This document shows, one piece after another, positions 3,924-50,838 of a stretch of DNA of 64,000 nt. The position numbers and the translations under genes are program-made. The notes beneath the pieces were generated by a model that had not been told where the DNA came from, ran no database searches, and saw only the letters and a program-made list of their open reading frames with translations. This DNA comes from Chlorobiota bacterium (lineage in GTDB: Bacteria; Bacteroidota; Ignavibacteria; Kapaibacteriales; NICIL-2): the NCBI GenBank assembly GCA_039810585.1, contig JBDHXF010000006.1, positions 12,486 through 76,485 of the forward strand, read 5' to 3'. Each line of letters begins with the position of its first letter. Within the stretch, counting starts at the first letter, position 1.

Positions 3924-4345
3924 TTTCGCTCCTAAAGATTGATGCCGTCAATCGTTGTTTGTGGGGTCTGTAAATCAGACTACTTACTCTAAAATACAGC
4001 GCGAAAATGTTTTTCCACAGAAAAAAAGATAATTTTGTCCACTTTTCATGCGCGGATGGCAACCTCTGCCCCCTCTTATCTGCAAGTAGATGTTTTAATT
4101 TGACTTATCCGCTTCATTCTCTGTCAGCTACACGGCAATCCCGGCTGCCCCTTGTGCCGGTGTTGTCCTCGCCAACGCAGCGACAACGCGACGCTGAGTC
4201 GTGGATTAAACTCCCAAGTGCTTTTTGTCTTCAAAGAACTGTTGGGACGTCGGTGATCGAAACTAGTAACCCTTAAGACGAGCTACGAGATGGCAAATCA
4301 GTAAGTGCTGCTCGTAATTGTTCCAACCGCGCTTCATCCAGTATT

Positions 4346-4999
4346 GTGGACAGGCGTATCTCCGAAATCAACACCACTGCCATGGATACTGCACTCGAGA
4401 TTCTCAAACTGATAGTGGTGATTGGCTACGTTGCCTCCACGATTCCCGTTGACAATAGTGAAACGCACGTCGGTCAACCACCGGATGTGAGCGCACAACG
4501 ACTCGTGCTGGCCGGCGACGTCCATTGTTATGGTTGTGAGTCATCGCCGGATGGAATCCTGCACATCGAACACTCGAGCGATGTTGCCACGCTTACCATG
4601 CAAATACGAAACCTGAGCGACAGCATCGTGTATCTTGATGAAACAGAAACACGCCTGTCGATCGACACAACCGTGTACAACGCTACGGAATGGATGACCA
4701 GCCTGCACTCGTCAACCTACGCTCCTCAATCGAGTCGGCGTTTGCTTCCGCATTGCAGCTATGCTATCTCGGTATCACAGGTGCTCGAACCATTGGTCGA
4801 TTCCGCATATGTGATGTCTGCCGAACGTCTCGCTAGCGGAGATACAACTGACGCAGATACGGTGCTCAATGAGGAACTGTCATATGCGAGAAATACCGGA
4901 CTGCTCCTGTCCATTGCCTACCGATTACCATCCGACTCATCGAATCGTATGTTCAAGAGTCTCTATCTCTCCCCCACTCTCCATTCTGAAAATCGATAG
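4346..4999 (+). CDS. Hypothetical protein (217 aa from a GTG start; alternative ATG at 4382)
   Basis: Uninterrupted ORF in an otherwise empty 1.8-kb gap. No recognisable motif and no clear signal peptide. Confidence 0.35.
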   Translation: MDRRISEINTTAMDTALEILKLIVVIGYVASTIPVDNSETHVGQPPDVSAQRLVLAGDVHCYGCESSPDGILHIEHSSDVATLTMQIRNLSDSIVYLDETETRLSIDTTVYNATEWMTSLHSSTYAPQSSRRLLPHCSYAISVSQVLEPLVDSAYVMSAERLASGDTTDADTVLNEELSYARNTGLLLSIAYRLPSDSSNRMFKSLYLSPTLHSENR

Positions 5000-22520: not shown

Positions 22521-24812
22521 TTAGGCAGCGTACTGCGTGTGGCTGTGTTTGCTTTGCGCAGTGGCCATGCCCTTGTCGGGGGCAATAACGGGACGATGTC
22601 CTGCGTTTGTGCCTTCGTCGTGCAGTCGGAAGTGCGACACCAGATTATGCAAATTCTCGGTCAGCCTGTTCAAGTCGTCCGCTGCATGGGCAATCTGATC
22701 GGTGCCGCTAGCAGTTTGGGTCGTTACCTCACTGATAGCCTGAATACTGCGGCTAATGGTTTCACTGGCGCTGGACTGCTGTTCGCTGGCCACGGCGATC
22801 TGGGTGATCATCGTGGTTACATTCTGCACCGCATCCGAGATGCTGGCAAATGCTGTCCGCGCCTGATCCGTCAGGTGAATCCCCTTGTCCACTTCGCTCG
22901 TTCCGGCTTCCATCGACGAGATCGCGTTTTCCGTTTCTGTCTGAATTCTTGAAATCATGGTCGAGATTTCCTTGGTTGCTTTCGTAGTGCGTTCGGCTAG
23001 TTTTCGCACCTCATCAGCCACCACCGCGAATCCTCGGCCTTGCTCGCCTGCTCGTGCAGCTTCAATAGCCGCATTCAACGCCAGCAAGTTTGTTTGATCG
23101 GCGATGTCGTTGATCACGGTGATAATCTCACCGATTTGTGAGCTGCTCTCGCCCAAAACTTTCACTGTCTGGGCGGAGTCGTGAACCACGTTGGCAATTC
23201 GCTTCATTCCTTCCACCGCCTCGATGATCGACTGAACGCCATGATCAGCGGTTTCTCGTGCCATTTCTGCACTCTGCGCCGTGTCACGTGCGTTATTGGA
23301 ATTTTCGATGATGGTTTTGGTCATCTCTTCCACCGCACTGGCAACGTCGTTCGTTTGCATGGTCAACTCATGCTGACCCGCGGCCATTTCTTCAGTCGAC
23401 GAGCTGATTTGTGACGATGCGCTGGCTGTTGCTTCCACGGCATTTTGTACGCCTTCAATGACGTCACGGAGTTTTACCACCGAATCGTTAAAGCCGCGAC
23501 AGAGCTCGGCCACCACCGCATCGCCCTCTTCCGATACCTGAACATTCAGGTTACCTGCGGAGCGCTCTTCCATGGCTACCAAGACCATGGAAACGGATTG
23601 ACGAAGGTATTCGGTGTACTTTTCAGATTCAATCTTGAGGGCTTGTGCTTCTTCGGCAAAGGCCTGGGCTTTTTGCCGCTCCTGCTCATTCGCCACCTGC
23701 GATTCCTGAATCTTATCAACCATGGCGTTGAAACCCACACCGAGTTTTCCAAGATCATCGTTCGATACCACCGTAACGCGTGTATCAAGGTATCCTTCTT
23801 GAACCTGGTTCAAGGCATCGCCCAATTCGCGTACCCGTTGAACGATGTAGGAAGCAATGCGACGACTCAATACTACCGGGAGGATAAGTAGGAAGAGCGC
23901 TAACAGGACGCTTCGAATACGATCGTGCGAGAATCCGGTAGCACGACTATCCAGCAACGCATGGAGTTGATCGAGCGAGGCCTGAGCAAGACTAGCGTTT
24001 CGAGTATAGGCTGCGTCCAACTCGGATTGCAATCCACGAACGATAGCCCGAGCGGAATCACCCTTGCTATTACCGATGTGCTCTAAGTCTGCCAGAGAAC
24101 GAAATGAACTGAGCGCCGGAGCAATCGATGCTTCCAGATTTTTCTTTACATCGCCGCTCGCATTCTTAGTCATCGAAGTTTGCAGATCGGATTCCATCAC
24201 ACCGCAGACGTCTTCGATGCGAGCGCAAGTGACGGTTAAGCGAGTGAATGCTTCGGGTCCTCCATTCGTGCAACAGTACTGCAGATCCTGCAGCAATTTT
24301 GCTTGGAGTATAGCCATGTCCTGACTCCTAACACAACAGGCATCCATCAAGTAGTATGAATCCAGATCGGGGTCAAGGGTTAGGTTAGAGTTGTCTGCCA
24401 CGGTAGAGATCACATCACGCGTGGCACGTTGCAGATCAGCAGCTTTAACGGCGTCACTTCCCGATCCGCATGCTTGCACAGAGGATTCAAGAGACGAGAT
24501 TTTACTGTCGATTTCGAGTGTCTGACAATTGTCCTTTTGCGCCTTCAAATCACTCAGAGCTTTTGCCACCACCGCCTGATCCATGCAAGCGAACTCCGAT
24601 CCAGCTTTCGACGACTCAATCATGAGCGCCGTAAGAGGCTTCAGGACTTCTGTACCCGCTTGCTCTTTGGAAGCAAACTGAATGCCCTCGTTACGAACGG
24701 TAACGAAGAAGTACATCAGGACAAGAATAACCACACTGAATCCAATGGTGGTCACCAATAGTTTCTGCTCGATGCTTCCCTTACGGAGATACATCTCAAT
24801 CTTCTCTTTCAT
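22521..24812 (-). CDS. Methyl-accepting chemotaxis protein (one N-terminal TM helix, ~290-aa Cys-containing sensor region, HAMP repeats)
   Basis: Signalling hairpin [45 protein letters not shown]-like segments. ATG 24812 (MKEKIEMYL...). Confidence 0.9.
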
Positions 24813-24907: not shown

Positions 24908-26011
24908 CTAGAAGGAAACGCCGAGGCTGAATATTCCTTCAAGGCGGCTGTGCGAGTTTGTGCCATTGCTGTTTTCAAACATGGCATCGACCATAGAGTC
25001 GTGCATGCTGCGCGCTTCACAGCGTACGTACGCGTTTTCGACGGGACGGTATTCCAATCCCAGCGTGGCTGCTTGAGCTATCATCTTCGTCGATCCGCTC
25101 AACACACCATCGGCATCATGGAAGAACTCAGCACGACCACTCACGAATAGTCCTGAATTGATTTCGTAACGCAGCGATGCAAACGCGCCATACACCATCG
25201 ACATAGAAGCTGCGTCTTCGCTAATTTTTTGCATTCCTTGGTCGGCCGTAATCTTCAGTTTCAACGCATCGCTGAGGCTGGTATTGAAGACCAGGTTGTT
25301 GCACACACGCATGAGCGACGGAGAGCCGGCGGGTTGCTCGTTGCCTGCTATTCCGTTTAAAGCCAGAGTCGAAGAAGGGCTCAGCTTGTAGCTGATGCCC
25401 CAGCCAATTGATTTCTGTTCGTTATTATCCGTAAATCGATTGTATCCGTTCAGGGCGTGTAGGCTCACGCTCACGTCGCTCGTGGCATCCCAGCTCAAAC
25501 GCACTCCACTCTGAAAAATGGGTTCGAACTGTGTAATGAGAGCCACACTTGCCAACCAGTTATCGCGAGGCGTAATGGCCTCACCACCAATGTGTGTGAG
25601 GAAGTAGCCGGCATCGATCCACAGACCCTCATGCAAACGCAATCCGGCATAGGCTTCCTGAATGCGATTGCTTGGTGTGAGAATATCCTCACCCGTTGCC
25701 ACCCAATCATATTGTGCAATGTCGCCGTACTGCAATGTGATTTTTGCATGGTATCGTTCAGCATCCGCAACGGCACTCATTTGCACTATGTTGAGTGCAA
25801 ATTTGTCCTTCGCAATGTTCAACGGGTTGGTAGCAAATCTGTTCTGCGCCGCCCGCGCATCGTTATCCATGGCGTAGTAGCTATCGATATAGCCATTGAA
25901 CTTTAACGACACAGCCGCCGCACTATCGGCACCTGCGCTTGTTGCCGTGTTTTGAGCATACACTGCCGAGCTTAAGATGAGAGTCGATACCAAAACGACA
26001 ATCGCTTTCAT
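24908..26011 (-). CDS. Outer-membrane beta-barrel porin-like protein
   Basis: Signal peptide MKAIVVLVSTLILSSAVYAQ. Alternating amphipathic strands rich in Y/G/A. C-terminal ...FSLGVSF. Specific family not determined. Confidence 0.55.
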   Translation of the reverse strand: MKAIVVLVSTLILSSAVYAQNTATSAGADSAAAVSLKFNGYIDSYYAMDNDARAAQNRFATNPLNIAKDKFALNIVQMSAVADAERYHAKITLQYGDIAQYDWVATGEDILTPSNRIQEAYAGLRLHEGLWIDAGYFLTHIGGEAITPRDNWLASVALITQFEPIFQSGVRLSWDATSDVSVSLHALNGYNRFTDNNEQKSIGWGISYKLSPSSTLALNGIAGNEQPAGSPSLMRVCNNLVFNTSLSDALKLKITADQGMQKISEDAASMSMVYGAFASLRYEINSGLFVSGRAEFFHDADGVLSGSTKMIAQAATLGLEYRPVENAYVRCEARSMHDSMVDAMFENSNGTNSHSRLEGIFSLGVSF

Positions 26012-26211
26012 AATCTTCCTTCGATTGGTGAAAAGTCAAACAACCAAGACAGAGAGTTCAGTCTTAAGTGTTGCGATGTTTGCGTAGTGATTATCGAATC
26101 AAAGAGCTCGAGCTGAAGGGTTTTTTAGAAGATAATTTCTACCGAAATTCTTTAATAAGCGAGGTCATGGTCTCGAAGAAGCGAAAGCTCACATGCCCTT
26201 GACGCACACAC

Positions 26212-26297
26212 GTGAGCCACCCACTCGGCGATGCCGAGTGGGTGGCTCACTCTTTTTAGGCTTATCCACAAAACAGTGATTCGACTCAAATTTCGAG
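26212..26297 (+). repeat. Intergenic element A1: 18-bp-arm perfect hairpin, T-run and TTATCCACA module
   Basis: GTGAGCCACCCACTCGGC-GAT-GCCGAGTGGGTGGCTCAC (26212..26250), then TCTTTTT, then TTATCCACA (26262..26270). 77/86 identical to A2. Confidence 0.85.
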
Positions 26298-26448
26298 GGG
26301 TGTATTGGGGATAAAATTCTGGCTTGTGGAAAGTATTGAACGGATACGGATGTCCACACCTGGCACTCCGCTGACCATTTTGGAAGAAACGGGTTTTTCT
26401 TCGAGAATGACACGTATTCCAAAGGGACATCGCCTGGAGCCAGACGTG

Positions 26449-26534
26449 GTGAGCCACCCACTTGGCGAAGCCGAGTGGGTGGCTCACGCTTTTTAGGCTT
26501 ATGCACAAAACAGCGATTTCGCTCAAATTTCGAC
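26449..26534 (+). repeat. Intergenic element A2, a copy of A1 237 bp downstream
   Basis: Same hairpin with one arm change (C to T) that keeps a G-U pair only in a plus-strand RNA. Followed by GCTTTTT and TTATGCACA. Confidence 0.85.
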
Positions 26535-26604
26535 GTAGTAGATGGGGATATTAATTAGCCATGTGCAAACATTCACGATGATTTTGATGTCCAGATACCC
26601 ACAA

Positions 26605-26639
26605 ATGAAAAACCGCTGCCTTGAAATCAAGACAGCGGT
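26605..26639 (-). terminator. Intrinsic terminator of the che operon / haem MCP gene
   Basis: Stem ACCGCTG/CAGCGGT followed by TTTTT on the minus strand, about 45 nt after the stop at 26684. Confidence 0.6.
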
Positions 26640-26683
26640 AAAGATGATCAGCAGCGCGAAGCGCGTTGGTAATGAGTCGTCGC

Positions 26684-28861
26684 TTAGTAGTTCGAGTGAG
26701 CGGAGCTGTGCGAGTGACTCATGGTGTTTGAGCGACCAGCGGTTTTGTCGGCCATGTACTGCGGACGTGCGCCGGAGCTGCGCGGTGAGTTTTCGTTGAG
26801 TGTGAAATGACTCACGAGCTGGTGCAGGTTTTCGGTCAGACGGTTAAGGTCGTCCGCCGCGTGGGCGATTTGCTCGGTGCCAGTCGCGGTTTGGCTGGTG
26901 ACTTCGCTAATGCCTTGCACGCTACGACTAATCGTTTCCGACGCGTTGGATTGCTCTTCGCTGGCGACGGCAATCTGGTTGATCATGCCTGCCACCTTGC
27001 GAACGGCCTCGGAGATTTCGTTGAAGGCGCTGCCTGCTTGATCGGTCATAGCGATACCGGCGCTGACCTGACGAGTACCCTCGTTGATGGACGACACCGC
27101 AGAGCTCGTATCACGCTGGATACTTTGGATCATCGACGAGATTTCCTTGGTGGCCTTGGTGGTGCGTTCGGCAAGCTTGCGCACTTCGTCGGCTACGACG
27201 GCAAATCCACGACCTTGCTCGCCTGCTCGTGCGGCTTCGATGGCTGCGTTGAGGGCAAGCAGGTTGGTCTGATCGGCGATGTCGTTGATCACCGAGACGA
27301 TTTCACCGATTTGCGTTGAGGAACGTCCTAACGCTTCGACTGTTTGAGCGGAGCTATGAACCACGTCGGCGATGCGACGCATTCCTTCCACAGTCTCTTG
27401 CAGCACTTTCACACCGGAGTCGGCCGTCGTGCGAGCCTGATCGGCCATGTCGGCTGTGGAACGGGCGTTGGAGGAGTTTTCGATAATCGTCTTTGTCATC
27501 TCTTCCACGGCACTGGCAACGTCGGCGGTTTGCATGGTTTGTTCGTGCGAGCCGGCAGCCATTTCTTCCGTTGAGGATGATATTTCTGCCGATGCACTAG
27601 CAGTGGCTTCTACGGCACCGAGGACGTTTTCGACGATAGCGCGGAGGTTGGCAACGGCATCGTTGAAGCCTGCCATGAGCTGACCAATTTCGTCGCTCGA
27701 CGTCACGTCCAGCTTTGTCGTCAAATCGCCGGCGGCAAAGCGTTTCATGGCTTCGAGCACGGTGCTGACGGATTCGGCGAGGTAGCGACGTTGCTGTTCG
27801 TCTTTCTCCGTGGACTCGCGAATACTGCTAATCATAGAATTGAAGCCGGACTTCAGGCGACCGATATCGTCCTGCGAATCTCCGTCGATCTGCACTGACA
27901 TATCGCCCTGACTAAAGCGGTCCATTGCCTGCAGAATAGCCGAGACAGATTCGTTGAGATAGCGACGGTTTTCTTCAGATACTTGTTGAGCTTGTTGGAT
28001 GTTCGACACCATGGTGTTGAACGATGCACTAAGTACACCGAGTTCGTCTTTCGTGGTAATCTTCACTCGAGCATCCATGTTGCCGGCTCCGACTTCGTCG
28101 TTTGCCTTCATGAGGTTGTTCACCGGTTTCATGATCATAGCCGAGATGCCTAATCCCATGAGAATGAAAACACCAACCACAACGGCAAGAATGCGGAAAA
28201 TCATGGCTGCACCTTGCTGAGCGGCTTCACGCACCGGCGCCATTGGCATAATCACCTCAAACGCACCGTGCACTTCGCCTTCTTTCCAGTTTTCCATCTT
28301 CGCACCGGTTGCGTCTAAACCTTCGTTGTTTCCCCAGAGAGCCATGGAATTTGCCGGATTGCCGTGACAATTCAGGCACTCAGAGGTGAGCTTTACGGGA
28401 CGGAAGAAGCGCAGGTTGTCGGACTTGTCATCAATTTGATAGTACTCCGACACCGTCCCACCTTCCAGCTTGTGCAATACATCTGCCTCAAAGGCATCCG
28501 GCTCGTTGTCTGGGTTGCGCGGTTGAAACTTGGGTACCTTAATGGTTAAACCAAGATCCTTTGCCTTAGCTTTTGCTACTTGAATTGCAGCAAAGACCGG
28601 TACGGTGTACAGGAGGTCGTCCTTTTTCTTAATGTCTGCTTTGAACAGGTTCTTCTTGTACTGCGTAGCCGCATACTCACGAGCCGATTCGGCAGAGAGA
28701 ACCAAGGCGCGGGCTTTTTCCACGTAGGCTTCTTCTTTCTGATCGATGTACATGTTCACGATGGCCTTGTACACGCCAAATGCTCCCAACACACATCCGA
28801 GAAGCAGTGGAAGCAAAATCTTCATCCGAATACCGGAAAAGAACTGTATGAATTTTTTCAT
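26684..28861 (-). CDS. Methyl-accepting chemotaxis protein with a periplasmic DUF3365/Tll0287-like c-type-haem (CXXCH) sensor domain and three HAMP-like units
   Basis: Single CXXCH ([11 protein letters not shown], aa 162-166) in the periplasmic domain between two TM segments. Three HAMP-like repeats. Canonical MCP hairpin [41 protein letters not shown]. Confidence 0.9.
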
Positions 28862-37678: not shown

Positions 37679-37737
37679 CGCTCTATTGTTCGTCAACTGT
37701 GATGGATGCCCGCAACCTAATGAGCGTAGAGTTGAAG

Positions 37738-37963
37738 ATGCTCTAAAAGCACGTCTTTGCGAGCGAAGCGAAGCAATCCCGTCAGCGCAGATCATCGCAT
37801 TGACGAGAATGCTTCGTCGCTTCGCTCCTCGCAGTGATGCGGAATTGTACATGCTCTGAAAGCAAGTCTTTGCGAGCGAATTGAAGCAATCCCGTCAGCG
37901 CAGATCATCGCATTGACGAGATTGCTTCGTCGCTCCGCTCGTCGCAGCGACGCGGAATTGCAA
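37738..37963. repeat. Two tandem copies of a 113-bp unit, each able to fold into a long imperfect hairpin
   Basis: Unit 1 is 37738..37850 and unit 2 is 37851..37963. Arms GAGCGAAGCGAAGCA / TGCTTCG(TCG)CTTCGCTC enclose an inner CGTCA/TGACG stem. Lies between convergent genes. Confidence 0.85.
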
Positions 37964-39157: not shown

Positions 39158-39324
39158 AGCGAGCCACTCGCTCCCCCTCACAATCAGCTCCCCACAAACA
39201 GAAAAACCCCCAATCGCTGCAAAAACGAAAGGGAGTAGTTGCTTTTTCCACCACTTTATCCACATTTTGGACTGAAAGCGGTTCCCGAGTGGGTGGCTCA
39301 CCACCGCAATGCTTGTGTGGAAAT
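39158..39324. repeat. 167-bp direct repeat, copy 1 (left boundary of the nos cluster)
   Basis: 159/167 identical to 50053..50219 with no indels. The core 39196..39305 (110 bp) is identical. Contains AGCGAG-CCA-CTCGCT, TTATCCACA (39256..39264), the 17-mer CCGAGTGGGTGGCTCAC (39285..39301) and TGTGGAAA (39316..39323). Ends 5 nt from the fasciclin stop. Confidence 0.9.
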
Positions 39325-41295: not shown

Positions 41296-42093
41296 TTAGA
41301 ATTGCACAGGAAAGTGTACCACACCTAGCTCTGTACCTCCCTGGCTCAAACGTAGTTGAATATCCCAGCCACCATGCATGTTCAGATTTGCCGCGGCTGC
41401 GAATTCGCCGTCACCGGTTGCTACCGGCTGCACATTACCATCCGACGACATATCCATCGTGGTCATGTGTGTGCTCATGCTTAAGTTCATCGTGCTCATT
41501 GCTTCGATTTGGGTTTGGGTGGAGTGACGATATATCCAAAATCGCAACGGGTTCATACCCATGCATGGGCTGGCCGACAAAGCACAAACGCAGAAATATT
41601 CTTGCCCGTCGCCACCCTGCAGTTTCTGCACGGCACTACTCGTCGGAACCGTGAGCTTCACCGTAAAGTCGTGCTCCGTGTCTGTCAAGTGATTGTGCAC
41701 ATGAACGTTCAGGCTCCAATCCTGTCCACTTATACTGGGCATCGTACAAACCATGGCACCCTCAAAAAGACCCAATGCATTCGGGGCAGTGCTCAACGGC
41801 TGCTCCATCGGCGCGTCATGAGTGCCGCCACTCATCGCCATACTAGCTTGCATTTCCACGTGTGCATCTTGTAACACTTGTCCATTGCAGGCGCACACGC
41901 ATCGAACGTACAGCTTGTTGTACCCTGCGTGTAACGTGTTGTCCGAGTAAATCTCTATTTGTGTATCGCCGTCGCTAAGCTCCGTAATCTTGGCCTTGTT
42001 AATACTTGGTAATGAGACCTCGGGCGCAGTCTGCTGCGAGCACGAACTCAACATCAGAGCAGTGAGTATCAGGGTGAGTAACGCTGTTTTCAT
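41296..42093 (-). CDS. Met/His-rich lipoprotein with two YtkA/FixH-like halves (265 aa)
   Basis: ATG 42093 gives MKTALLTLILTALMLSSC (lipobox). Met/His clusters HVEMQASMAMSGGTHDAPME and MSTMNLSMSTHMTTMDMS. Each half ends in a HGGW/QDW-type strand. Confidence 0.5.
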   Translation of the reverse strand: MKTALLTLILTALMLSSCSQQTAPEVSLPSINKAKITELSDGDTQIEIYSDNTLHAGYNKLYVRCVCACNGQVLQDAHVEMQASMAMSGGTHDAPMEQPLSTAPNALGLFEGAMVCTMPSISGQDWSLNVHVHNHLTDTEHDFTVKLTVPTSSAVQKLQGGDGQEYFCVCALSASPCMGMNPLRFWIYRHSTQTQIEAMSTMNLSMSTHMTTMDMSSDGNVQPVATGDGEFAAAANLNMHGGWDIQLRLSQGGTELGVVHFPVQF

Positions 42094-42179
42094 AGAGGTG
42101 ATAAACCGTGTTTGTGGAAATACTCTTCGCAAGATTTTTTTGCGAATGCGCTTCGCGCCATTCATTGAGAGCGCTGCCG

Positions 42180-43052
42180 TTAAAAGTCCTTTCGTAAGAA
42201 AGTGCGTCGTGCCACAATGACAGGAATGATGGCCCACATTGTGAGCACGCTCAAAGCCAGGCTCATTCCTTGCCAAGAACCAAAGAATTGCTTATAAATC
42301 GCTCCCGTATAACCCATTAAGGCTGATTGATCCAAAACAAGTGATAACATGATTCGAGAAAGATCGATTGGATTGAGAAAACTCAGCACTAAAGCGAAGC
42401 GCTCGGTCGGGTAATCACTAAGAGCGTAAAGCAGAAACAGAAAGAGTCCGTCGTACACAACAGCGCAGAAAAACCACACCATCAACGATGCACCAAATCC
42501 TTTCGCACGCTCATCCATTTTTGTGGCGATTGCGAAGGCAAGAGCGCTGAACGAACAGGTGAGAAGAGCCCCGTTGACCAGTAATAGAAGTGTTCGCCCT
42601 ATAAGGTCTCGATCTCCAAACGAGTGCGCGAGCAGGGGTATACCTGCTCCAACGCAGAAACTCAGGACGAGTGGCAATGATGTGGCCAAAAAAGACGACA
42701 CAAATACCGTCGATCGGCGCACCGGTTGCGACAAAAGCAATTCTGTGAATTCTCTGGTATTGTACACTTGCATCACACTAAACATGATGCTAATGAGCGG
42801 AACGACGATGGTCATGATACTCATAAGTGTCACAAAGACTTTGTCGGCCATACCGGTAAAGCGGAACAACCCCTCACTTAGAGCAACAAAGAACGCGAAG
42901 TAGATCAAGAGCCATTTGTTTCGAGCTGCGTTCCGCAGCTCTACCTTCAAAAGTGAATCGAGAGACGTTCTATGATGTGCGGCAATCAGAGATCTCTCTT
43001 GTGTACTCAGATCTTCAACACTATACGCCGATATGTAGGTACTAGTATTCAT
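42180..43052 (-). CDS. nosY: ABC-2-type permease NosY
   Basis: Six-TM ABC-2 permease translationally coupled (ATGA) to nosF within the nosDFY order. Confidence 0.8.
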   Translation of the reverse strand: MNTSTYISAYSVEDLSTQERSLIAAHHRTSLDSLLKVELRNAARNKWLLIYFAFFVALSEGLFRFTGMADKVFVTLMSIMTIVVPLISIMFSVMQVYNTREFTELLLSQPVRRSTVFVSSFLATSLPLVLSFCVGAGIPLLAHSFGDRDLIGRTLLLLVNGALLTCSFSALAFAIATKMDERAKGFGASLMVWFFCAVVYDGLFLFLLYALSDYPTERFALVLSFLNPIDLSRIMLSLVLDQSALMGYTGAIYKQFFGSWQGMSLALSVLTMWAIIPVIVARRTFLRKDF

Positions 43053-43771
43053 GCGGCTCTCCGAAACGTGACATTTTTCTGCAGTGACGAGACGGCTTGT
43101 TCAAATGATTGTTGACCCGTAGCATGTTGTAATTCAGACTTTGATCCATGAAAGAGCAGAGATCCTTCCAGAATAAACGCGATGTCGTCTGCTAACTCTT
43201 CAATCTCTGCAACAATGTGCGTGGTGAGAAGAATCGTCTTCTCCCTAGCTTTCTCCGTTATAATCAAGTCTTTCAGACGACGAGCCATGAGCGGATCCAA
43301 ACCTGCGGTAGGCTCATCTAGAATGAGAATGGGTGCATCAAACATCATTGCGGCAACAGCGCTCACTTTTTGTCGTGTTCCACCACTGAGAGACTTCATG
43401 TTCTTCTCTGCATGAGGCAGAAGCTCAAATACTTTAAATAGTTCATGGAGTCTTTTGGGCTCTTCTTCTCGTAGCTCCGAAATCATGCCGAGAACTTCGC
43501 GGATTGTCAAGTTGTCCGGATAGCGAGCCACTTGAGGCATGTACCCAATCTGCCGCCTATAACTACCATCATTGCTGACTGCAGTCCCACTAACGTGAAT
43601 AGTGCCACTATCGGGTTTTACTAATCCAAGAATACTCTTGATAAGAGTTGTTTTTCCGGATCCATTGGGACCCAACAATGCCGTTGTCCGGCCATAACCG
43701 AAATGCAACGAAAGGTTATCAAGCACCGGTATGTGAGAGTAGCACTTCCGCAATTGATTGAGATTTATCAT
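43049..43771 (-). CDS. nosF: ABC ATPase NosF
   Basis: Walker A GPNGSGKTT, signature LSGGTRQKV, Walker B LILDEPTAGLD. ATGA overlap with nosD. Confidence 0.9.
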   Translation of the reverse strand: MINLNQLRKCYSHIPVLDNLSLHFGYGRTTALLGPNGSGKTTLIKSILGLVKPDSGTIHVSGTAVSNDGSYRRQIGYMPQVARYPDNLTIREVLGMISELREEEPKRLHELFKVFELLPHAEKNMKSLSGGTRQKVSAVAAMMFDAPILILDEPTAGLDPLMARRLKDLIITEKAREKTILLTTHIVAEIEELADDIAFILEGSLLFHGSKSELQHATGQQSFEQAVSSLQKNVTFRRAA

Positions 43772-45012
43772 GAGAACGTCCTCAATGGCTTCATAGATGG
43801 CGCATCATCCTGCATGGTAGCAGGAGTAACGGTAGGAAAGATTGATTCTGCCAAGTCCAAGAGGGACACAAAGAAACTGTGGAGCAACAGCATTGCCGGC
43901 GAATTTTGCTCAACGATTGTAGAAAAAAGTCGAACGGGGCGGAAAGGCACGTCACCGACGCCATTTTTGTCTAAATCATACCCCGTATATCGATCCCAAT
44001 AATTCCCGTGAAATGTACTGTAAGCGGTATAATCGTTTGTTGCAACATCAAAACTGTTGGAGCTAAAGTTGTTTGAGTCAATCAGATTGTCGACGGAGCT
44101 TGCCATCAATCTCATCGCCCATCCATTTGAGATAAAGTTATTGCGGTAGATATGCATGGATCCACCACTTTCCGCGTAAATACCCGATGAATTGCCCTTG
44201 AAAACATTGTTACAAATCGTTGCGTGGGATATTTCTTTGAGTAAAAGCGCATAGGAAGCGTCGCCAAGATTATCCTCAAATACATTGTCTTTCATCAGAA
44301 TGTCGTGTGTATACATCACAGCTACACCAGAACCATTATGATGGAAACGATTCTGTTGATACTCGTTGTGGTGCGAAAACATGAAGTGCAAACCATAACG
44401 AATATTGCCCTTGCTTTCGTTGTTCATGACTCGAGTGTTGGTCGTAAACTCCAAGTAGATCCCGTCTCTATGTTGATCGACAACATTATTGCGGATCAAA
44501 TAGTCATCACAATACCAGCAGTGAATTCCATTCCCGGAAGCACTTTCACTGTTGGCATTACTTTGAATGAAATTGTTACTAATGGTATTGTGCTTACTCT
44601 TTGCTGAGTATATGCCATAGCTGCAGCACAGAATTGTATTCGCATCGATCACACAACCCTCCACAAATTTCAACCTGATCCCCGAGCGCTCGTAGATATA
44701 GGAGTCGCCTGTATGGCAAATGGTAAATCCGCGAATGGTGACATTATTTGAGGTCACTACGATTACCTCACAAGAATCAGCGCCATCAACCGTAACATCG
44801 CCATCTGCTATTAGTTGAATCGCCTTATCGACAACAATGGTACCTTCACAGTACCACCCTTTATGGACGCGAACAATATCACCCGCCTTTGTATTCTCAA
44901 GCGCACGATGTAGTGGCATTGGAAATACAGGATAGACGTCCACTGTCCTGCTGAAGGAATATTGCGTTGCGCTCAGGAAGAGTAGAATCAGCACGGGAAG
45001 TCGGCACTTCAT
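43768..45012 (-). CDS. nosD: Periplasmic right-handed beta-helix protein NosD
   Basis: Signal peptide. Repeated parallel-beta-helix units (NNxI...N pattern). Position immediately upstream of nosF and nosY. Confidence 0.85.
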   Translation of the reverse strand: MKCRLPVLILLFLSATQYSFSRTVDVYPVFPMPLHRALENTKAGDIVRVHKGWYCEGTIVVDKAIQLIADGDVTVDGADSCEVIVVTSNNVTIRGFTICHTGDSYIYERSGIRLKFVEGCVIDANTILCCSYGIYSAKSKHNTISNNFIQSNANSESASGNGIHCWYCDDYLIRNNVVDQHRDGIYLEFTTNTRVMNNESKGNIRYGLHFMFSHHNEYQQNRFHHNGSGVAVMYTHDILMKDNVFEDNLGDASYALLLKEISHATICNNVFKGNSSGIYAESGGSMHIYRNNFISNGWAMRLMASSVDNLIDSNNFSSNSFDVATNDYTAYSTFHGNYWDRYTGYDLDKNGVGDVPFRPVRLFSTIVEQNSPAMLLLHSFFVSLLDLAESIFPTVTPATMQDDAPSMKPLRTFS

Positions 45013-45064
45013 GTCAATGCGTCATAAATGGATACTTTTAACGTCAGAAATCGACTGAGAATTA

Positions 45065-46138
45065 CTACCAGGTTTTAGCGACAAGCAGTCGTGCGCTATC
45101 GAAATAGTACAACTCACCTCCATTGGTGGCGTGAGAAGCCTCGTATGCCTCTTTCGTGCCATACGCACTCAGGTTTAGGCCCATGGGACTCGGAAGTTTT
45201 TCGGATTTGAGATACCATGCCTTTCGTGCGGCGATAAGATTGCCAGGGTTAGCATAGTCCACTACCCATTCTGTTGCGATATCGTCCGGATCAACTGATT
45301 TGTCTTGCTCGAAGCCAAGCATACATTCAATGCTATCAAACTTGTAGACTTTTGTCTTCTTTGTAATGAGCTCGGCACCAAAGCGTTGGTCTGTAATGGT
45401 CATTTTACAGTGAGCACATTCCTCGCTACCAAAGTGGATTGCCTCAGCCTTATCTGAGCACGCATTCAGGGCGAAGCACATCCCGAGAAGAGCGACTCCC
45501 ACGAGCCCCTCATTTATTCGAGCGGCGGAACCGCCGCTCGAATTCAACGACACTTGAGCGTTCTTCTTTTGAATCGGTTTCGACTTCCACCAGGTAAAAG
45601 CTCCAAGCGCAAGTGAAACAAACATGAGGTAACCACCAACGCCCGGAAGGGAAAGCGCGTGGAAGTTCAGAAGCTGTTTGCCACCAATCAGTGGTGGTTG
45701 ATAGGTCATGTCCGGGATGCAAATTGCGGCGTGAGGATTGAGATTGTGGCCGTAATCATATTCCCAGTTATAGAAATCTATCATTCCAGCTACTCCCAAA
45801 GCAATAAACACTACCACCCAAGAGAGCAACATCCATCGTTTTCCAAACGCGACAACGGCCAATGCGAGCACAATAAGGGAGGCTACGATTGTTGGCATGT
45901 AGCGCAATTCGGCAATACTGTCAGGTTCAATTCGCTTCATTCCGATGTAGTGGTTGAGGTTATTAATACTAGCCAAATCCTGTTCTTTTTCTCCGACTAT
46001 TGTGTTGATGTGGATTCGAAGACCCAAGCCCTCCGGATATTGAGGCGCCTCCAAGTTTATTTGCCATAGTGGGAAGGCGTATAGACCGCAAAGGAGTACA
46101 GCGCTAATTGCAATAAGTATGCGGTGTGTAGTGTTCAT
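45065..46138 (-). CDS. nosL: Single ORF joining a NosB-like 4-TM membrane domain to a NosL-like copper-chaperone lipoprotein domain
   Basis: The N-terminal half has four TM helices directly downstream of a Sec-type nosZ, which is the NosB position. The C-terminal half has its own lipoprotein-type signal (GLVGVALLGMCFALNAC) and a NosL-like core (CAHCKMTI...KFDSIECM...PSPMG). ATG 46138. Confidence 0.7.
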   Translation of the reverse strand: MNTTHRILIAISAVLLCGLYAFPLWQINLEAPQYPEGLGLRIHINTIVGEKEQDLASINNLNHYIGMKRIEPDSIAELRYMPTIVASLIVLALAVVAFGKRWMLLSWVVVFIALGVAGMIDFYNWEYDYGHNLNPHAAICIPDMTYQPPLIGGKQLLNFHALSLPGVGGYLMFVSLALGAFTWWKSKPIQKKNAQVSLNSSGGSAARINEGLVGVALLGMCFALNACSDKAEAIHFGSEECAHCKMTITDQRFGAELITKKTKVYKFDSIECMLGFEQDKSVDPDDIATEWVVDYANPGNLIAARKAWYLKSEKLPSPMGLNLSAYGTKEAYEASHATNGGELYYFDSARLLVAKTW

Positions 46139-46261
46139 GTGATAACCCGACAATTGGTGAGAAGAATGGTGAATGCACGTGTGTGGCAGCGGCACAATTC
46201 TGAATTCTGCTGCGTGAAGGGAATGCGCCATTCACTGCACATCCCCTTCACTGTGCGCTCG

Positions 46262-48235
46262 TTACTCTTCAAGCTTTGGAGTCGATCCAGTCGACAATGG
46301 AACGCTTGATCCGGCGGGAGAAACCCGGATGTAGCCTTGCATTTCTTGATGGAGCGCAGAGCAGAAATCTGTGCAGTAAAATGGTTGAATGCCGGCTGTC
46401 TTTGGAGTCCACTTAAGCGTTTGTGTTTCTCCGGGCATTATGAGGAGTTCGGAATTATCTGCGCCGCGGATAGCAAAGCCGTGAGGCACGTCCCAGTCTT
46501 GCTCAAGGTTCGTCACGTGGAAGTACACGACATCACCAACATGCACTCCTTCGATATTGTCCGGTTTGAAGTGCGATCGAATCGAAGTCATATATACATG
46601 TACTTCATTTCCTTTGCGTTCCACTCTCGCGTCTTTTTCGCCCATCGCCACGAATGGGTGCTTACTCTCTGTCAGCTTGAAACTCTTGACGGAGTTCTTT
46701 TCAAGCAGCGTTGCAGGACACATTTGCGCATAATGTGGCTCTCCTACTGTTGGGAAGTCAAGTAGCAATTTCATTTTGTCTCCACTGATATCGAATAGCT
46801 GTGCGGACTGGCATAGTTCCGGTCCCGTGGGGAGATACCGGTCCTTTGTAATTTTGTTCAGAGCAACCAGATATTTTCCGGTCGGATTTCTGTTATCGCC
46901 GCCAGCCACACATAAGTGACCAATGGAGTAGTACGTAGGCTGTCTGTCCACTACGGAAAAGTCTTTGAGGGACCATTTCACGACTTCCGAACTGACGAAC
47001 ATGGATGTGTAGGCAAATCCTTTTCCATCGAATTCCGTATGCAGCGGTCCTAATCCTGGCTTCTTGACTTCGCCGGCCAGGGCGGCTTCGTACTTAATAA
47101 TTGGAATGCCATTCACATCGCCTGCGAATTCCTTGTTTTCTATTGCCTTCAAGAGCTTCGTGTACGAGAAGACCGGAATGATAGCTGCCAGCTTACCGCT
47201 TGCTGCTATGTACTCGCCTGTGGGATCTACGTCGCAACCGTGTGGAGATTTTGGCGCAGGAATGAGATACACTAATCCGGGACACTCTTTTGGATCAAGC
47301 TGTATGCATGAGTTTTCCATGGTGGAGTTTGCGCTGTGCGTAGACTCATCATAGTGGTTGTGTGCGTATTGACAAGGAACGGTCTTCCCTTTACCTTGTG
47401 CCACATACTCCTCGGCTTTTTTCCAATTTATTGCCGCGACAAAGTCCTTGTCGTTTTGGCTTGCATTCACCTCTAGCAAGGTATTTGCCTCCTCGGAGTT
47501 ATAACAACTGAAGAACATCCAACCATGTGACTTATCTTTTCCTGCACATGCTAAGTCGTAGTCAAACGGTGGCATGTTGATTTGAAAGGCGAGCGACATT
47601 GTCCCACTCTTTGGGTCAACTTTCACGAACGATGCACGACCATGGAAATTTTGCTTGTACGAGTCAATCGGCACGTCAGAATTCGATTCGTCTGGTAGTG
47701 AGAAGCGTGATGCGGATACCACATACTCAGTTCCTTGAGTCGTGTACGGCGACCCGTGATTTCCACCTGTGTTTGGAATTTCAATGATTTCGGCAGTGCG
47801 GAATGTCGACAGATCGATTCGAGCAATACGCGGGGTATTGTTGCAGTTCGCGAAGAGCCATCGACCATCGTCGTTCCCATCTGTTCGACTCAGCTGCAAG
47901 TGGTGCTGGTCATCCCAAGGGATGAACCCTCGCGAGGTCATTAGCATGGGTTTTGTTTCCTCACTGTATCCCCACCCACTCTCTGGATTTTGCGAGAACA
48001 CAGGTATAGTGCGAAACAACCGACCGCTTGGAACCCCGTAGACACCAATCTGACCACTAAAACCACCGGACGTAAACAAGTACATTTCGTCATGCTTACC
48101 AGGCGGCACGAAAACTCTCGATGCAGCATCACCATCCGTCATTGCTGTTTTCGAGGATGCCGGACATCCGTTGAAGTTCAGTGCTATCAGAATGATAGCA
48201 ACGACTCCGACCGTTAGACTAACAAGGTATTTCAT
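46262..48235 (-). CDS. nosZ: Nitrous-oxide reductase NosZ, Sec-dependent (clade II/atypical) type
   Basis: 657 aa. N-terminus MKYLVSLTVGVVAIILIALNFNGC has no twin-arginine motif. Propeller His ligands are present. C-terminal CuA site FYCTDFCSALHQEM. Confidence 0.95.
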   Translation of the reverse strand: MKYLVSLTVGVVAIILIALNFNGCPASSKTAMTDGDAASRVFVPPGKHDEMYLFTSGGFSGQIGVYGVPSGRLFRTIPVFSQNPESGWGYSEETKPMLMTSRGFIPWDDQHHLQLSRTDGNDDGRWLFANCNNTPRIARIDLSTFRTAEIIEIPNTGGNHGSPYTTQGTEYVVSASRFSLPDESNSDVPIDSYKQNFHGRASFVKVDPKSGTMSLAFQINMPPFDYDLACAGKDKSHGWMFFSCYNSEEANTLLEVNASQNDKDFVAAINWKKAEEYVAQGKGKTVPCQYAHNHYDESTHSANSTMENSCIQLDPKECPGLVYLIPAPKSPHGCDVDPTGEYIAASGKLAAIIPVFSYTKLLKAIENKEFAGDVNGIPIIKYEAALAGEVKKPGLGPLHTEFDGKGFAYTSMFVSSEVVKWSLKDFSVVDRQPTYYSIGHLCVAGGDNRNPTGKYLVALNKITKDRYLPTGPELCQSAQLFDISGDKMKLLLDFPTVGEPHYAQMCPATLLEKNSVKSFKLTESKHPFVAMGEKDARVERKGNEVHVYMTSIRSHFKPDNIEGVHVGDVVYFHVTNLEQDWDVPHGFAIRGADNSELLIMPGETQTLKWTPKTAGIQPFYCTDFCSALHQEMQGYIRVSPAGSSVPLSTGSTPKLEE

Positions 48236-48337
48236 AAATACTCCATGAATTGGAAGATGTGACTTTCGACTACTGCCGTAGTGTGAATGCAGAGTGGTAT
48301 TCCCCTGACCGCCTGCATAGTGATTATTTTAGTAATT

Positions 48338-48844
48338 CTAATTTCGTTTTGAGTTATTGGCGTCATATTTCACACCGACTCGGCGTAGGTGTTCAAGTAC
48401 GCTACGGGCGTCGTTGGGATCGACTATCATATTGGGCATTTTTAACATGTAGGTTTGCAAAAGGCAGCGTACAGTGTCGTCGTTTTCAACCATCACATCC
48501 GTATCAAGTATCATATTCATGATGTACTCGGGTGCTCTGCGGTGGGTCACGCCACCTAATCCAGGTCCCACGTAGCGCTGGTCATAACGGTGACAAGCCG
48601 TGCACGTTGTTTGGAAAATTTTTTGTCCCTTATCCGCTAAGGCTCCATCTATAGCGGAATCGAGTTTAACTTCTTTGATTTTATAGTAATTCGGTTTCTC
48701 CTGAACCTGCAGACCCGGTGCCGGTGCGGATGTATCTGCAGTTTTCGTATCTGATGTGTTTTTCTGTGTACACGATTGCATGACAAACAACAGCGTAACA
48801 ATCAAGGCAACCCTACATGAGGTGTGCGTCTCTATGCTTTTCAT
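48338..48844 (-). CDS. Mono-haem c-type cytochrome upstream of nosZ (NosC-like position)
   Basis: Signal/lipobox-like N-terminus. A single CTACH haem motif with a distal Met (LKMPN). Confidence 0.85.
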   Translation of the reverse strand: MKSIETHTSCRVALIVTLLFVMQSCTQKNTSDTKTADTSAPAPGLQVQEKPNYYKIKEVKLDSAIDGALADKGQKIFQTTCTACHRYDQRYVGPGLGGVTHRRAPEYIMNMILDTDVMVENDDTVRCLLQTYMLKMPNMIVDPNDARSVLEHLRRVGVKYDANNSKRN

Positions 48845-49439: not shown

Positions 49440-50052
49440 CTACCGAATATATTATATGGGACTAAAATATCTCATTACAAATCTAATGAGCGTTGGGTCT
49501 ATTTGCAAATATTTTTTGAAGATCTTTTTTTCTTAAGCAAGATTGAGGCTCAACATGAAAGAGTATCGACGTCAGACAGCCTTGACGTGCACTAAGCACT
49601 TGGGCTCTCCAAATCGACACTCTTGTGCCTGAGATTATTGGGAATTTCTGTCATAAACCCCTAGACGATCTCAAGTGCGCCATGCTGGCAAGGCGAACTC
49701 TGCAGCCTGGAAACAGCTTTTTCGTGTATCTAGCGAAAACTGCAGAAGCAAGCGGAAGTACTTAATAGTTTCAAAGTTGGATAAACTCGCTGTCGGTTAT
49801 TCAGACAATGTGAGTTGCACTGAGACACAGCATCGACGCATCTAAGCAGAATCCTTCGTGGCCGTGTCGGTCAGCTTCCTAAGCACATTGCCGGTACTCG
49901 CTCGACATGGTGTTCCGCAGAGGTAAAGTTAGCCGGATTAGCCATGGCAAACTCACCAAAGCCGACCTCGTGCGCGAAGTAAACCGCTAAACCCATTATC
50001 GACAAGAAACAACCCATCAAATTTTCGCGATGAACTCAGAATTTTACAGTGT

Positions 50053-50219
50053 AGCGAGTCACTCGCTCCCCCTCACGATCAATTCCCCAAAAACAGAAAA
50101 ACCCCCAATCGCTGCAAAAACGAAAGGGAGTAGTTGCTTTTTCCACCACTTTATCCACATTTTGGACTGAAAGCGGTTCCCGAGTGGGTGGCTCACCACC
50201 TCGATGCTTATGTGGAAAT
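50053..50219. repeat. 167-bp direct repeat, copy 2 (right boundary of the nos cluster)
   Basis: See copy 1. Same orientation, offset 10,895 bp. Confidence 0.9.
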
Positions 50220-50340
50220 CGACGCGTCGCTAATGAACCAAAACACTGCCTTCGTTGCTCCTCCTTATACCATCCGCTGATAACCTGCCAGGACGCTCGA
50301 AAAACGCCTCATCCCGGAACTGTTGTTCCTCAAAGCGTCG

Positions 50341-50435
50341 ATCCGATCTGAAAGACCGATGTACGTTATCCACAGGTTGTCCACAATTGCCGTTTTTGGT
50401 GAGAGGCTCAGTGTGACCGAACAGTGACTGGTTCA
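50341..50435. repeat. Intergenic repeat B1 (about 69% ungapped identity to 54178..54272) with adjacent TTATCCACA and TTGTCCACA boxes
   Basis: Hand alignment gives 66/95 identical positions. The shared block is ACGTTATCCACA. Confidence 0.5.
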
Positions 50436-50838
50436 TTCGATCTAAGCTGAGCGTTTACATTAACATAAAGGTATAGGCGGCTGAGTTTCAAAAGGTGTAG
50501 CGAGTGACTCGCTTATGCCTGAACGGCTTCCGTTCGTTGGGCTTTTCCGTGGCTTTCTTTAACATAAACGGACGGAAATGTCTCGCGCAATTGCTTCGAA
50601 TTGTCTGATCCTTGATTATTGTGTAACGGTATGTTCACGCTAAGCCCATACTCGCCGCATTCGTTTGCGCGAAGCGCGAACGAATTAAATGGGCTTTTAA
50701 TATGCTGTTTCATGTGACAGCCTACCGAGTTCATCTGCCTCACACAGACAAATGCCCCACTCGAATGAGTGAGGCATTGGAAGTTGGGTCTTGTGAGATA
50801 TGGTTTCGCTCTCGCAGGCGAAAGTATCTGAGCTGTGC

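Follow-up and report, generated by a model that had tools for sequence, protein, structure and literature searches.

Paired terminator-like hairpins between a porin gene and a che operon in a Chlorobiota contig as possible extragenic palindromic repeats

Introduction

Why should a spacer between two minus-strand genes carry two long hairpins that look like transcription terminators of the plus strand? The question is raised by a 64,000-nt stretch of the Chlorobiota contig JBDHXF010000006.1, which we call the window (64 kb). The spacer in question separates a porin gene from a methyl-accepting chemotaxis protein (MCP) gene of a che operon, and it holds two similar hairpin doublets, A1 and A2, lying 237 nt apart. 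An earlier interpretation, made from the letters of the DNA (the sequence-only reading), offered two candidates: a pair of small RNAs (sRNAs) with Rho-independent 3' ends, or hairpin elements resembling miniature inverted-repeat transposable elements (MITEs) or palindrome-associated transposable elements (PATEs). We consider it most likely that the hairpins belong to an uncharacterised family of ordinary extragenic palindromic repeats with terminator-like polarity, and that they are no new kind of system. In the more specific form that we tentatively favour, and to which we give somewhat less than an even chance, A1 and A2 would be lineage-specific repeats similar to repetitive extragenic palindromes (REPs) and bacterial interspersed mosaic elements (BIMEs), and the plus-strand terminator would be a by-product or a co-opted feature.

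Results and discussion

Two hairpins with the polarity of plus-strand terminators

The spacer was 672 bp long and the genes on either side were both on the minus strand, confirming the earlier description of a 670-bp spacer between a minus-strand porin gene and a minus-strand che operon. The direct repeat formed by 26212-26296 and 26449-26533 was identical at 77 of 85 positions (91%) with a mismatch at position 86, which reproduces the 77/86 identity first reported. Each copy starts with a palindrome made of two inverted 18-nt arms (GTGAGCCACCCACTCGGC in A1; the coordinates of all features are collected in Table 1). The 18-mer arm had six matches in the window against 0.04 expected, so its occurrence is not due to chance. 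As RNA, the A1 hairpin was predicted to fold with -40.3 kcal/mol on either strand (plus-strand z-score -8.5), and as single-stranded DNA (ssDNA) with -24.3 kcal/mol, the corresponding ssDNA value for A2 being -21.0 kcal/mol. The only arm substitution in A2 (the equivalent position in A1 is 26226) leaves a G-U pair on the plus strand, where the RNA hairpin reached -40.0 kcal/mol (z-score -7.3); on the minus strand the energy was -34.0 kcal/mol, a loss of about 6 kcal/mol caused by a C-A mismatch.

The terminator scan agreed with the earlier observation that both 18-bp-arm hairpins are followed by a T-run on the plus strand only, and reported TCTTTTTAGG / GCTTTTTAGG 3' of the hairpins on that strand. 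On the minus strand the A1 hairpin is followed by GTGTGTGCGT, without a T-run. The arrangement of an intrinsic terminator, a GC-rich hairpin directly followed by a U-tract, was found on the plus strand of A1 and A2 and not on the minus strand. Since CTTTTT follows each palindrome, plus-strand transcripts would stop there or gain a stable 3' end; the geometry was observed directly, and the activity we infer from it. Neither hairpin lies at the 3' end of a recognisable gene, and with both neighbours on the minus strand the statement that the hairpins terminate nothing annotated was upheld. The same scan also found the che operon's own terminator, on the minus strand, where it had been placed before.

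Compared with Rho-independent terminators in general, A1 and A2 share the GC-rich hairpin, the U-run immediately after it and the one-sided polarity. They differ in a stem of about twice the usual length and stability, in a U-run of five residues that comes after a 2-nt spacer, in lying within a duplicated unit that continues past the termination point, and in standing at the 3' end of no recognisable gene.

These features could be explained if the hairpins were dedicated plus-strand terminators of unannotated transcripts, either two sRNAs in an arrangement like that of micF or antisense or divergent RNAs, with termination itself under selection. The canonical plus-only geometry, with the GC-rich stem and CTTTTT kept in both copies, is consistent with this, as is the G-U pair that the single arm substitution retains. 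The sequence-only reading had taken this C>T change as a hint of selection on a plus-strand transcript; its pairing chemistry (G-U on the plus strand, C-A on the minus strand) was correct, but one transition carries a 50% prior for each strand and is thus 50/50 evidence. G-U pairs on the plus strand, in the same direction as the A2 substitution, also occur in the pairing between the left end and the arm of D3, a repeat described below, but this evidence is confounded by the left end of D3 being itself a self-palindrome. The location 5' of the porin promoter, and divergent from it, recalls the pair micF-ompC.

Two known arrangements of sRNA genes are relevant here: OmrA and OmrB are encoded by tandem paralogous genes near outer membrane protein genes, and micF is divergent from ompC. 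Like these, A1 and A2 stand next to each other, are non-coding, carry terminator-like hairpins and are placed beside a porin gene and divergent from it. In contrast to them, the would-be RNA bodies of A1 and A2 are unrelated, the shared sequence comes after the T-run, and there is no conservation in relatives. The scan revealed no plus-strand promoter-like site upstream of the hairpins, and specifically no sigma-70-like plus-strand promoter in 26012-26448; the Bacteroidetes-type -7 motif (TAnnTTTG) had no strict match in the spacer. Further, the syntenic spacers of relatives contain no counterpart, and an 18-bp stem of -40 kcal/mol goes far beyond the genome's own terminators, whose stems are 10-13 bp. 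Together with the distribution of homology between the copies, discussed in the next section, these points make selected termination at dedicated sites an unlikely explanation.

The copies share the sequence after the hairpin

The 86-nt repeat described at first holds as regards identity but proved too short, because the homology reaches ~26330 in A1 and ~26567 in A2. Counted in 20-nt blocks, the identical positions between A1 and A2 were 19, 18, 19, 16, 14, 12 and 11 before the background was reached, and the segment past 26297/26534 scored above all 200 shuffles in alignment. On the other side of the palindrome only a marginal match was found, 13 of 21 positions at a 1-nt offset, with an uncorrected p = 5.6e-4 that becomes ~0.03 after correction for the offsets and lengths tried. 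The homology beyond the 86 nt, taken with the marginal ~21 nt upstream, gives a unit of about 120-140 nt (~26191-26330 and ~26427-26567). The units do not form a clean 237-bp tandem duplication, a possibility that was rejected as the ~100 nt between them could not be aligned to the sequence after A2. Searches with a profile hidden Markov model (nhmmer) and a covariance model found no further copies of the unit in the window, beyond A1 and A2, or in related loci.

Thus, what the copies have in common is the hairpin and the tail downstream of it, and no transcript body upstream. Paralogous sRNAs have both the transcribed body and the terminator in common, and a pair of them would be expected to show homology 5' of the terminators; A1 and A2 show none beyond the ~21 marginal nucleotides, and the conserved part comes after the T-run, which is the opposite of that pattern. 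The proposal of two sRNAs with Rho-independent 3' ends was therefore weakened.

The tail itself might have a structure. In the consensus fold, TCCACA (26265-26270) in A1 is able to pair with TGTGGA (26325-26330), and in A2 TGCACA (26502-26507) is able to pair with TGTGCA (26562-26567), a compensatory difference; a second compensatory change falls in a small inner stem. The energy of the consensus fold was mildly unusual against column-shuffled alignments (p ~0.02), but the covariation was not significant, as at least two compensatory pairs appeared in 42% of such alignments. The tail structure is therefore not established.

A structured tail would fit a locally duplicated cis-regulatory or non-coding RNA (ncRNA) module selected at this locus. 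The units might be minus-strand promoter modules (a weak match to TTGAGT-17-GATAAG is present) with transcripts that begin a little ahead of the hairpin and run toward the porin-MCP operon with it as a stabilising 5' element, or they might give a minus-strand RNA that ends in the hairpin. Conservation is graded as such a module might have it, with a peak over the hairpin and the 46 nt next to it (~85-95%) and then a fall to background, and the fold energy, the two compensatory pairs and a TCCACA...TGTGGA closing stem that recurs in D3 point in the same direction. Against this stand the frequency of compensatory pairs in the shuffled alignments, a promoter match of 8/12 that is below the scan criteria, and a block conserved in three genomes that puts the likely porin promoter nearer to the gene, at 26090-26120. 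Moreover, on the minus strand the hairpin lacks a U-tract and the A2 stem has its C-A mismatch, and the relatives manage without the module. We regard this explanation as quite improbable.

That the units encode small proteins is scarcely credible. Open reading frames (ORFs) do exist, on the plus strand at 26305-26496 and 26542-26799 and on the minus strand at 26152-26526; the plus-strand pair begin at (T/A)TGGGGATA sites that are homologous to each other. However, they had no Pfam matches and they cross the palindrome or run antisense into the MCP gene. Coding potential was rejected: the differences between A1 and A2 were mostly non-synonymous in all six frames, with 4-6 non-synonymous against 0-3 synonymous codon changes.

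The arm recurs among other palindromic repeats of the window

The arm was also found outside the spacer, as a singlet (CCGAGTGGGTGGCTCAC) in each of the two copies of D3, a dispersed 167-nt repeat. D3a and D3b lie ~11 kb apart and have sharp boundaries; these boundaries and 95% identity over such a distance indicate that D3 was dispersed recently. The left end of D3 is a GCGAGCCACTCGC palindrome, GCGAG(C/T)CACTCGC, which is able to pair with the arm. The left flank of A2 together with its arm (GTGGTGAGCCACCCACT, 26446-26462) is the exact reverse complement of 39288-39304 in D3. D3 also holds CTTTTT...TTATCCACA...TGTGGA in the same order as the A tail, and the TCCACA...TGTGGA arrangement, while the overall similarity of the A tail to D3 was marginal for A1 (z = 2.4) and nil for A2. 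The end of D3a lies 5 nt from a fasciclin-domain gene's stop codon.

Palindromes of the form GCGAG-N3-CTCGC occurred seven times in the window against 0.11 expected, most of them just 3' of genes or between convergent genes, and three of the seven (50051, 50497 and 54233) had a 5' GTAG head. In addition, a tandem repeat of two 113-nt units, ~90% identical, occupies 37729-37954, in a spacer flanked by genes for a methyltransferase and an acyltransferase; its units each form a long imperfect hairpin with GCGAGCGAAGC...GCTTCGCTC stems (GCGAG...CTCGC), with an ssDNA energy of -30 kcal/mol and z ~-4.5. The six arms and the seven GCGAG palindromes were without exception in intergenic intervals of the window. 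The presence of D3, the GCGAG palindromes and the 113-nt tandem repeat within 64 kb suggests that the source genome is rich in extragenic palindromic repeats.

Alternatively, A1/A2 and D3 could together represent an undescribed family of structured ncRNA genes, or of RNAs encoded by the elements, in an uncultivated bacterium of the Fibrobacteres-Chlorobi-Bacteroidetes (FCB) group. Such RNAs could combine the very stable hairpin, the U-run and a domain that the TTATCCACA/TGTGGA stem closes and compensatory change maintains, and all copies would have one orientation, antisense to the local genes; possible roles would be element-borne guide or regulatory RNAs, or regulatory modules bearing DnaA boxes. 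We give this idea a low probability.

As each of them is palindromic, A1 and A2 are also inverted repeats of each other. They might hence be recombination sites on either side of a 198-bp segment that can be inverted or excised, as a switch for phase variation 5' of an outer-membrane protein gene. The 40-nt arms at 26211-26250 and 26449-26488 are 90% complementary and 198 nt apart, and invertible promoters 5' of surface-protein genes are common in Bacteroidota. However, neither a recombinase nor an invertase domain was found in the scanned ORFs of the window, each site is a complete palindrome but for 3 asymmetric central nucleotides (GAT in A1, GAA in A2), the direct-repeat tail extends past one site only, and the promoter-like block is outside the segment. 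A switch of this kind is thus very improbable.

Relatives and public collections

The nearest porin homologues in the databases were only 68% and 63% identical. Both nearest genomes share the che-MCP-porin-MCP-flagellar synteny, and we compared 42 kb from the two (contigs L041 and L042, both from metagenome-assembled genomes (MAGs) at NCBI). Their MCP-porin spacers are ~140-230 bp and 557 bp long, each with a normal MCP terminator. Neither an A-like hairpin nor the arm nor GCGAG palindromes occurred in these syntenic spacers, which makes a cross-species covariation analysis impossible, and no GCGAG palindrome was found in the whole 42 kb.

Among 185,579 species genomes the 17-mer arm had 40 single chance matches in unrelated taxa, where it was never accompanied by a partner arm, and a degenerate pattern of the inner hairpin stem retrieved seven unrelated hairpins and no related copy from the JGI metagenomes. 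Viral contigs gave two chance matches, and plasmids matched neither the A unit nor D3. Evidently the genome and metagenome collections do not contain the source genome, so the null result there is uninformative, not negative. Searches of Rfam 15 with the spacer, with the window as a whole and with the region of D3, at both the E-value and the gathering thresholds, gave nothing but a tRNA-Val, D3 itself having no match; below threshold, only models of miRNAs and snoRNAs were hit. Pfam scans, which covered ~45 ORFs of the window, found no transposase, recombinase, REP-associated tyrosine transposase (RAYT) or IS200-like enzyme, and no Y1_Tnp or TnpB domain. No TnpA of the IS200/IS605 type was thus present among these ORFs.

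Comparison with known repeat systems

REP sequences are defined by a GT(A/G)G head followed by a palindrome (Nunvar et al. 2013, PMC3686654). Inverted REP doublets that form a hairpin are termed REPINs, and tandem doublets BIMEs (Bertels & Rainey 2011, PMC3116915, PMC3337134; PMC3686654). For REPIN doublets with flanking A/T runs, a co-opted role in attenuation has been proposed (PMC3337134).

The repeats of our window resemble these systems in several respects. They are extragenic; a GC-rich motif occurs both as singlets and as inverted doublets with near-perfect hairpins; the doublets A1 and A2 stand in tandem, as in a BIME; a single genome contains palindromes of several classes, some of them with GTAG or GTGG heads; and the adjacent T-run fits the proposed attenuation. 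We based our preference for a REP/REPIN/BIME-like family on the inverted doublets and singlets, the extragenic location, the tandem clusters, the GTAG-headed palindromes and the absence from relatives. A difference is the host, which is an FCB-group bacterium and not a proteobacterium.

MITEs were considered as well. Bacterial MITEs such as Correia/NEMIS, ERIC, BOX and RUP have structured RNA or terminator effects (reviewed in PMC3184786). Our repeats are similar to them as non-coding intergenic sequences of ~100-170 nt with long hairpins; those MITEs are able to affect transcription or mRNA stability, and D3 is like them in its sharp ends and 95% identical copies. Terminal inverted repeats were absent, however: the A unit has its palindrome at or near one end and an unrelated GCTTGTGGAAA at the other, and the left-end/arm pairing of D3 is imperfect and internal to the element. 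No direct repeat indicative of a target-site duplication flanked A1, A2, D3a or D3b. No parent insertion sequence (IS) is known, no IS occurs in the window, the plasmid collection had no matches, and those in genomes and viruses were chance singles. The paired subterminal hairpins of IS200/IS605 PATEs were not seen either, each unit having one strong, perfect hairpin without a second match. Of the earlier MITE/PATE suggestion, the repetitive nature was borne out by the recurrence of the arm in D3, by the other palindrome families and by the absence from syntenic spacers of relatives, but neither terminal inverted repeats, target-site duplications nor paired hairpins accompanied it.

The core of the unit is the 39-nt palindrome, in which a 17-18-nt motif stands twice, in inverted orientation; in D3 the motif is single. 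We infer that the repeats, if REP-like, spread or are maintained by way of a hairpin-forming single strand, on which an HUH/Y1-type enzyme (RAYT or IS200-like) encoded elsewhere might act; local duplication and gene conversion would be an alternative agent. Any plus-strand transcript would be stopped at the hairpin or given a stable 3' end, for example one that is divergent or antisense, leaves the region of the porin promoter and heads for the che operon's convergent end. Such terminator or insulator activity would be a by-product or a co-option and not the reason why the repeats exist.

Several observations weigh against a REP-like nature. Only two doublets and two singlets were seen in 64 kb, and as A1 and A2 are neighbours, one local duplication could account for the pair. 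No cognate transposase was among the scanned ORFs. A2, on its left, and both D3 arms have the GT(A/G)G head (GTGG), but A1 lacks it and has CACG instead. The arms of A1 and A2 are separated by a gap of 3 nt within a perfect 18-bp stem, whereas published REPIN spacings are tens of nucleotides (PMC3337134), and the asymmetric tail of ~80 nt is not foreseen by the REPIN model. For these reasons, and because copy number and a cognate transposase are matters that extend beyond 64 kb, we hold the assignment with reserve.

If correct, it would add one more lineage-specific extragenic palindromic repeat family. This would be of modest interest, since REP/REPIN-like systems have mostly been described in Proteobacteria and the present host is an FCB-group bacterium (Ignavibacteria/Kapabacteria-like). 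A further consequence would be that repeats can put strong one-directional terminators before convergent operon ends, and there would be a warning for annotation that "orphan terminators" may be repeat elements, not sRNA ends.

Table 1. Positions of the hairpin units, related repeats and neighbouring features (window coordinates unless a contig is named).
Feature	Position	Strand	Description
A1 possible 5' extension	26191..26211	plus	marginal homology to 26427-26447
A1 palindrome	26212..26250	plus	two inverted 18-nt arms (GTGAGCCACCCACTCGGC), perfect 18-bp stem, loop GAT (3 nt)
A1 T-run	26251..26257	plus	TCTTTTT (terminator scan)
A1 tail	26258..26330	plus	TTATCCACA at 26262-26270; homology to A2 tail ~95% declining to ~60%
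A2 possible 5' extension	26427..26448	plus	ends GTG, so GTGG abuts the palindrome
A2 palindrome	26449..26487	plus	18-bp stem, one C>T at 26463 (left arm), loop GAA
A2 T-run	26488..26494	plus	GCTTTTT (terminator scan)
A2 tail	26495..26567	plus	TTATGCACA at 26499-26507
D3a	39158..39324	plus	167-nt dispersed repeat; arm CCGAGTGGGTGGCTCAC at 39285-39301, one TTATCCACA, GCGAGCCACTCGC palindrome at left end
D3b	50053..50219	plus	second 167-nt copy, 95% identical to D3a; arm at 50180-50196
GCGAG-N3-CTCGC palindromes	10431, 10554, 39159, 50054, 50500, 54236, 54337		
TTATCCACA boxes	26262, 39256, 50151, 50366, 54203	plus	
BBP2 porin gene	24908-26011	minus	
Conserved block 5' of porin gene	26090..26120	minus	CTTCnnCTCRAGCTC ... 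CGATAAT, in three genomes (alignment window/L041/L042)
Intrinsic terminator of MCP/che operon	26605..26639 (stem 26612-26639)	minus	12-bp stem then TTTTCATTTG (terminator scan), -20.5 kcal/mol
MCP gene	26684-28861	minus	Tll0287-like/HAMP/MCPsignal domains
Chance block with 17-mer arm	L006 ~4310-4420, L013 ~4690-4800, L023 ~560-670, L026 ~1620-1730		MAG contigs

Neighbouring genes and minor observations

The block conserved 5' of the porin gene has equivalents at ~9880-9925 in L042 and ~9940-9985 in L041, where the porins are only 63-68% identical, and it is probably a promoter or regulatory site of the porin(-MCP operon). Its CGATAA is similar to the sigma-28 -10 core. The block is porin-proximal, and A1 and A2 are positioned between it and the MCP terminator; they are outside the likely 5' untranslated region of the porin gene and are not required for MCP termination. 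The two MCP genes that flank the porin gene contain paralogous signalling domains, visible as repeats 4175 nt apart (22912-23495 and 27087-27670) with 71-77% identity. The named porin homologues (Kapabacteria, Ignavibacteria, Bacteroidota) and type IX secretion system sorting domains in the window assign the host to the FCB group.

In a ~100-nt, non-coding-looking block that several Comamonadaceae/Burkholderiales MAG contigs have in conserved form, GATGAAGGGGGCTTTTAAAAAGCC...CCGAGTGGGTGGCTCACTCAG..., the 17-mer arm occurs by chance; the block is unrelated to the window, and it had no Rfam match at the gathering threshold in the two contigs L006 and L013.

The perfect DnaA-box sequence TTATCCACA occurred five times in the window, always on the plus strand, against 0.43 expected, and with one mismatch 29 times against 11.6 expected, 23 of the 29 being on the plus strand. 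Neither gene content nor GC skew supported oriC as an explanation of these boxes. Four to five boxes are clustered (49996-50385) in a 1.4-kb non-coding gap at 49440-50838, which lies 5' of an Rrf2 regulator and the nos cluster. The nitrous-oxide reductase cluster itself (41296-48844) comprises a NosZ propeller, NosL, NosD, ABC components and a cytochrome c, with NnrS nearby, and its GC content is 0.44-0.49, compared with ~0.51 in the rest of the window.

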